Shown piece after piece: positions 26,088 to 27,127 of a stretch of DNA of 64,000 nt. Source of the DNA: Escherichia coli (GTDB taxonomy: Bacteria > Pseudomonadota > Gammaproteobacteria > Enterobacterales > Enterobacteriaceae). The stretch is taken from assembly GCF_030013205.1 (NCBI RefSeq), contig NZ_CP122648.1. One strand, given 5' to 3'. The notes under the pieces were generated by a model, which had not been told where the DNA came from, ran no database searches, and worked only from the letters and a program-made list of their open reading frames with translations. Within the stretch, counting starts at the first letter, position 1. Every line of letters starts with the position of its first letter. The position numbers and the translations under genes are program-made.

Positions 26088-26236
26088 GGTGATTCCTCGT
26101 GATGTTGTGCTTCTTATTGTTCGGTTCGCGTTTGCGAGAATGAATTCACTATATGACAGGAAATTCATTGCGGAAATTGATATATTCACAACATCACATT
26201 GCAATTTCTGCAACGCCAACATTGAGGGCTGCGCCA

Positions 26237-27127
26237 TTGGATTTACGCGATCTGAAAACCTTCCTGCATCTGGCGGAAAGCCGCCATTTTGGCCGTAGCG
26301 CGCGAGCAATGCACGTTAGCCCGTCTACGCTTTCGCGACAAATACAGCGCCTGGAAGAAGATCTCGGTCAGCCGCTGTTTGTGCGTGATAACCGCACGGT
26401 AACGCTGACGGAAGCGGGCGAAGAACTGCGCGTTTTCGCCCAGCAAACGCTGTTGCAATATCAGCAATTGCGTCACACCATCGATCAGCAAGGGCCGTCG
26501 CTCTCTGGCGAATTACATATCTTCTGCTCGGTGACCGCTGCCTACAGCCATCTGCCGCCGATTCTGGATCGCTTCCGCGCGGAACACCCGTCAGTGGAGA
26601 TCAAACTCACTACCGGTGATGCGGCCGATGCGATGGAAAAGGTGGTCACTGGCGAAGCGGATCTGGCGATTGCGGGGAAACCGGAAACCTTACCCGGCGC
26701 AGTGGCGTTTTCGATGCTGGAGAATCTGGCGGTGGTGCTGATTGCTCCCGCGCTGCCCTGCCCGGTGCGTAATCAGGTATCTGTCGAAAAGCCCGACTGG
26801 TCTACAGTGCCGTTTATCATGGCCGATCAGGGACCGGTACGCCGCCGCATTGAACTGTGGTTTCGGCGTAACAAAATCAGCAACCCAATGATTTACGCCA
26901 CGGTTGGCGGGCATGAAGCGATGGTATCGATGGTGGCGCTCGGCTGTGGCGTGGCGCTGTTGCCGGAAGTGGTGCTGGATAACAGCCCGGAACCGGTGCG
27001 TAACCGCGTGATGATTTTAGAGCGCAGTGATGAAAAAACGCCGTTTGAGCTGGGCGTGTGTGCGCAAAAAAAGCGGCTGCATGAGCCGCTGATTGAGGCA
27101 TTCTGGAAGATTTTGCCGAACCACTAA
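26237..27127 (+). CDS. ilvY: LysR-type transcriptional regulator IlvY
   Basis: N-terminal HTH ([21 protein letters not shown]); start assigned to in-frame TTG giving (M)DLRDLK, exact start uncertain. Confidence 0.85.

Follow-up and report, generated by a model that had tools for sequence, protein, structure and literature searches.

Genomic Context and Annotation of ilvY

The window, a stretch of 64,000 nt of Escherichia coli DNA (contig NZ_CP122648.1), carried ilvY, encoding the LysR-type activator of ilvC, between its divergent target gene ilvC and the convergent gene ilvA (Table 1). A TTG codon was located in frame, directly 5′ of the codons for DLRDLKTF (from position 26240), in the context cattGAGGgctgcgcca TTG GAT TTA CGC GAT CTG AAA ACC TTC, also given as CATTGAGGGCTGCGCCA followed by TTG. 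This bore out the original prediction, made from the sequence alone, in which TTG rather than ATG was noticed ahead of this N-terminus within positions 26228–26242 and the nearest upstream in-frame ATG was said to add 28 residues. That ATG lies exactly 28 codons upstream of the TTG. The extended ORF that it opens covers 26153–27127 and encodes 324 aa, with the TTG as its codon 29.

The genome of E. coli strain 7/2 (NZ_CP023820.1) was 100% identical to the window over 401 nt, and its RefSeq record places the start of the ilvY CDS at the equivalent of window position 26237 (TTG) and its end at 27127, giving a protein of 296 aa. The IlvY of this strain (WP_000365783.1) is of the same allele as that of the window and is annotated from the same TTG, with no difference between the two. 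In an ST131 genome, the RefSeq/PGAP annotation also puts the ilvY start at this TTG. Since the RefSeq records of both strains begin ilvY there, the TTG start is an already accepted annotation.

Table 1. Features of the ilvC–ilvY–ilvA region, in window coordinates, and the basis of each assignment.
Feature	Coordinates	Strand	Basis or remark
ilvC, ketol-acid reductoisomerase, divergent target gene	24612..26087	-	ORF list, RefSeq
In-frame ATG, 28 codons upstream of the TTG, very unlikely to be a start	26153..26155	+	TSS mapping, cross-species counts
IlvY operator O2, TCATTGCGGAAATTGATATAT	26165..26185	.	Corresponds to the published aTATatCaatttccGcaATAa on the other strand, in the operator description of PMC5002191
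Putative ilvY 5′ UTR, ~47 nt	26190..26236	+	TSS ~26190 ± few nt, from the published O1 distance
IlvY operator O1, ACATTGCAATTTCTGCAACGC	26196..26216, centre 26206	.	Corresponds to the published ACgTTGCAAaaaTTGCAAtGT on the other strand, in the operator description of PMC5002191
O1 core, TTGCA-n5-TGCAA	26200-26214	.	Window sequence
GAGG resembling a Shine-Dalgarno motif, 9 nt 5′ of the TTG	26224..26227	+	Window sequence
TTG start codon of ilvY, predicted to be read as fMet	26237..26239	+	RefSeq strain 7/2, K-12 b3773, NF008722
ilvY CDS, 296 aa + TAA stop, LysR-type activator of ilvC	26237..27127	+	RefSeq, NF008722, Pfam
ilvA, convergent with ilvY	27124..28671	-	ORF list, RefSeq

Comparison with protein profiles supported the same N-terminus. 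The NCBIfam equivalog profile for IlvY (NF008722), which has a cut-off of 246 bits, was matched with 513 bits, and residues 1–295 of the protein started at the TTG aligned to profile positions 1–292 of 293. Profile position 1 coincided with residue 1 of the TTG-started protein, numbered 29 in the extended ORF. The Pfam domain HTH_1 (PF00126) was found at residues 31–90 of the extended ORF (3–62 of the TTG-started protein) and LysR_substrate (PF03466) at residues 117–321 (89–293). A HTH_1 domain beginning at residue 3 is the normal LysR layout, and the IlvY of the window has an N-terminal HTH and a C-terminal substrate-binding domain. No NCBIfam or Pfam profile matched the 28-residue extension. 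The gene in the window has a full-length equivalog match, is divergent from ilvC and is separated from it by the tandem operators O1 and O2.

Operators, Promoters and Leader

In the operator description given by PMC5002191 (citing Wek and Hatfield, 1988), O1 (ACgTTGCAAaaaTTGCAAtGT) is centred at +17 of the ilvY TSS, O2 overlaps the ilvY −10/−35 and the ilvC −35, and a TTGCA-n5-TGCAA repeat (IR1) has its centre at −65 relative to the ilvC TSS. From the literature, K-12 IlvY is known to activate ilvC in dependence on acetolactate or acetohydroxybutyrate and to repress its own gene independently of the inducer. Both operators were recognized in the window, and O2 was invariant among all sampled E. 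coli alleles except at one T/C site. A sigma-70/terminator consensus scan of positions 26040–26300 returned nothing, both the ilvY and the ilvC promoters falling below its thresholds, and the TSSs were for this reason deduced from the literature. The K-12 distances were considered transferable to the window because the operators are nearly identical. If the K-12 geometry applies, the published operator positions would place the ilvY TSS near 26190, ahead of both the GAGG and the TTG, and the ilvC TSS near 26142.

Start-Codon Alleles Within E. coli

Alignment of the region between ilvY and ilvC with K-12 and other strains, which was the check named with the original prediction, revealed two different codons at the same position. 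The window and ST131 had TTG at the ilvY start (CGCCATTGGAT), whereas K-12 MG1655 (b3773, NP_418221.1) had GTG (TCCCTGTGGAT). The two are otherwise alike in their divergent ilvY–ilvC layout, O1/O2 operators, start position and use of a non-ATG start, and differ in that K-12 has GTG in the context TCCCTGTG and the window TTG in the context CGCCATTG. Two adjacent bases, 26236–26237, distinguish the TTG from the GTG alleles (CC-AT-TG vs. CC-TG-TG).

Allele frequencies were determined by megablast of 43-nt queries, each with the start codon at its middle, against 5426 complete E. coli genomes. Any 28-nt seed in a 43-nt query must span the start codon, so that every match carries the queried codon. 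The window-type TTG allele (CGCCATTG) was found in at least 3359 of the 5426 genomes and the K-12-type GTG allele (TCCCTGTG) in 1774, while a third type (GCGCCTGTG), also with GTG and recovered by a more sensitive search, was found in 149, bringing the GTG total to at least 1923. About 143 genomes (2.6%) fell outside these counts, extra nearby SNPs breaking the search seeds, and a rare ATG allele may occur among them. No match among the 5426 genomes was obtained with ATG placed in the window and K-12 contexts, nor with the single-step intermediates CCAGTG and CCTTTG. Most E. coli genomes thus have TTG as the natural allele at the ilvY start, and GTG is the other common one. The “usual ATG” from which the original prediction took the window to differ was wrong for E. 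coli, given GTG in K-12 and the lack of any genome with ATG in the two contexts tested.

Conservation of the Start Position in Enterobacteriaceae

A degenerate DNA pattern for a 13-residue protein stretch, searched in species-representative genomes, retrieved 97 stretches, essentially all from Enterobacteriaceae, and the 96 with enough flanking sequence formed the basis of the cross-species counts. The codon directly before the conserved Asp was ATG, GTG or TTG in all 96 species representatives, an arrangement that is not due to chance, since the chance expectation is 3/64 per genome. GTG was the most frequent (59 of 96, including Citrobacter, Klebsiella, Raoultella, Salmonella and Kluyvera), followed by ATG (36 of 96, including Kosakonia, Buttiauxella, Cedecea and Mangrovibacter). 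TTG occurred once, in the type strain of E. albertii, with the same upstream context as in the window.

An in-frame stop was present within 7 codons upstream in 61 of the 96 species and within 28 codons in 70. Among the 60 species with a start other than ATG, 39 had no upstream in-frame ATG, and the NTG codon is therefore the sole possible start in those 39. In 93 of the 96 species, a G-rich, SD-like motif occupied the corresponding site. These counts indicate that the position of the start is fixed, while the identity of the codon drifts among the three canonical starts. Judged from the distribution of codons, GTG is most likely the ancestral state across the family, and TTG is likely a derived state specific to Escherichia.

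In Buttiauxella, Cedecea and Dryocola, ilvY begins with ATG ACC ATG GAT, with two in-frame ATGs two codons apart, and the true N-terminus of IlvY in these genera may be MTMDLRDL rather than MDLRDL. Some records carrying ilvY were unusual in other respects. The 57.9-kb “plasmid unnamed2” of E. coli AH04 (NZ_CP081708.1) contained a foreign, frameshifted ilvC, an intact ilvY of 903 nt with a GTG start, and dhaK; the 25 nt 5′ of this GTG were identical to those of Kluyvera genomosp. 3. The record NZ_CP081793.1 (strain CT01, 57.9 kb) was noted alongside it. NZ_CP081708.1 could be a captured segment of a Kluyvera chromosome, or else a contaminant or misassembled contig. A contig labelled as Chryseobacterium sp. 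18061, of the Bacteroidota (CACSKA010000013.1), had an enterobacterial-type ilvY N-terminus and leader resembling those of Klebsiella/Raoultella and probably reflects assembly contamination or mislabelling; the MAG “Proteobacteria bacterium CTSoil_132” was flagged together with it.

Divergent Haplotypes and the ilvY/ilvA Junction

A 401-nt query covering the ilvC–ilvY junction matched 5425 of the 5426 complete E. coli genomes, with identities falling mainly into two bands, 95–99% (2889 genomes) and 90–95% (2267 genomes). Identity between the window and K-12 was 96.9% in ilvC, 94.0% in the intergenic region, 94.05% in ilvY and 94.2% in ilvA, with values as low as 90% in 200-nt segments across 24612–28671. 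Core genes of E. coli do not usually diverge this much. A difference of ~6% extending over the intergenic region, ilvY and ilvA (~3% in ilvC) points to deep natural haplotypes, and from these comparisons the variation at the ilv locus seems to consist of deep haplotypes together with recombinants.

The 3′ ends of ilvY and ilvA overlapped by 4 nt in the window, the TAA of ilvY occupying 27125–27127 and the stop of ilvA 27126–27124 on the minus strand. K-12 and strain 139 carry at this junction (window 27118–27130) a 58-nt insert with a REP-like palindrome (GCCTGATAAGCGAAGCGCTATCAGGC). With this insert, IlvY has 297 aa (ending in NHK) and is followed by a 51-nt spacer before ilvA, whereas the IlvY of the window has 296 aa and overlaps ilvA without a REP. 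The REP-less junction was found in at least 1201 of the 5426 E. coli genomes. It was not strictly linked to the start codon, as strains ECC-1470, O111 RM9322 and STEC346 combine TTG with an 894-nt CDS. Published work on how the converging transcripts from ilvA and ilvY terminate reportedly used K-12.

Alternative Readings of the ilvY Start

Translation from the upstream ATG at 26153 would lengthen the N-terminus of IlvY by 28 residues, to 324 aa in all. No stop interrupts the frame between this ATG and the TTG, and both the ATG and the open frame were kept in 9/9 chromosomal E. coli alleles sampled, although a run of 28 codons without a stop would arise by chance in about 26% of cases, (61/64)^28. 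The ATG is situated ~37 nt upstream of the ilvY TSS deduced from the published operator positions, and since that TSS (~26190) is downstream of it, the ATG would not be on the ilvY mRNA. It overlaps instead the likely ilvC −10 (TATAGT, minus strand, 26153..26148), and no SD-like motif precedes it. Outside E. coli, the would-be extension is broken by an in-frame stop in the 70 of 96 species mentioned above, just 12 of the 96 have an ATG 28 codons upstream, and it is missing from the foreign ilvY of plasmid NZ_CP081708.1. The profiles for IlvY and other LysR proteins begin at residue 29 of the extended ORF, and the extension matches none of them. Initiation at this ATG is thus very unlikely. Equally improbable is a start at another in-frame codon, either the TTG at 26222 (26222–26224), which precedes the start by 5 codons, or the ATG encoding Met25 within the gene. 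The former is in frame and downstream of the TSS expected from the published operator positions, but it is strain-specific, being TCG in K-12 and TTA in ST131, and it has no SD of its own and overlaps the one serving 26237. Starting at Met25 would remove the first third of the HTH_1 domain, and neither codon is conserved as a start across species.

The possibility that the TTG is an artefact of sequencing, or that a normal ATG (or GTG) has mutated in this strain alone, has in its favour only the prior expectation that a start codon will most often be ATG, and its probability is close to nil. An error is contradicted by the exact TTG context, which the E. albertii type strain shares with no fewer than 3359 independent complete genomes, and both an error and a mutated ATG by the failure of the ATG versions to match any of the 5426 genomes. 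The window is also ~6% different from K-12 throughout ilvY and ilvA, indicating a deep natural haplotype and arguing against a private mutation. The reading as a sequencing error or point difference from ATG was refuted by the population counts; the original prediction had named orthologues with ATG, this strain differing only by sequencing error, as evidence against a TTG start, and the TTG context was instead widespread.

Translation of ilvY from the TTG at 26237–26239, as originally predicted, is very strongly favoured by the RefSeq annotation, the cross-species position of the start, the curated profile and the promoter geometry, the position being directly observed and the TSS in this strain deduced from K-12. 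The description of the codon as a “non-canonical start” is too strong, because bacteria have three canonical start codons and TTG is among them.

Discussion

The ilvY TTG start is real, common, already annotated and ordinary, a known gene with a known kind of start. In the mechanism proposed here, initiator fMet-tRNA would decode the TTG at 26237 and the 296-aa protein would begin MDLRDLKTF, with the GAGG serving as the SD 9 nt upstream, on a leader of ~47 nt transcribed from an autoregulated ilvY promoter that would overlap the ilvC promoter. A weak start codon would suit a LysR-type regulator that is present at low abundance and under negative autoregulation. According to Hecht et al., AUG, GUG and UUG start ~83%, 14% and ~3–4% of E. 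coli genes, respectively; UUG and GUG initiate at 10–100% of the AUG level, and the N-terminal residue is Met. Initiation at ilvY would be of the same kind as canonical bacterial initiation at GUG or UUG, with NTG and an SD at normal spacing and decoding by fMet-tRNA. Compared with other non-AUG starts, its only special feature is that E. coli is dimorphic for TTG and GTG at ilvY. The gene was not among the entries in the supplements of TRAINSPOTTER and INRI-seq, which are start-site and initiation-mapping datasets, and papers on GcvB and on valine production mention ilvY with nothing on its start codon.

RNA folding of five 5′-UTR alleles (83 nt) predicted weak structures of −10 to −13 kcal/mol. 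The probability of the SD and start codon being unpaired was 0.2–0.5 in the TTG alleles vs. 0.11–0.14, in this comparison of five folds. These models hint that the ribosome-binding site is slightly more open in the TTG alleles, which could compensate for the weaker codon. It is nevertheless doubtful, with perhaps a slim chance in its favour, that the TTG/GTG dimorphism is a functional polymorphism of expression, possibly one under selection. The AT/TG dinucleotide difference, found without intermediates, suggests either that both bases were substituted in tandem or that the allele is old or was introgressed. Because the E. albertii type strain has the TTG (AT) state as well, the TTG allele may be an old one that crosses species, or an introgressed one.

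For this genome, the ilvY start call is correct, and the 28-codon extension should stay unannotated. The result also corrects the assumption of an ATG-started ilvY in E. coli, which has GTG or TTG instead, with no tested genome carrying ATG. Beyond correct annotation it matters little. Where IlvY/PilvC valine or isoleucine circuits are engineered in hosts other than K-12, it is relevant that most strains combine TTG with another base at −1, and that the REP spacer before ilvA is absent from some. If the dimorphism were a functional polymorphism, lineages of E. coli would set different IlvY levels, and with them the inducibility or noise of ilvC, by the choice of start codon.
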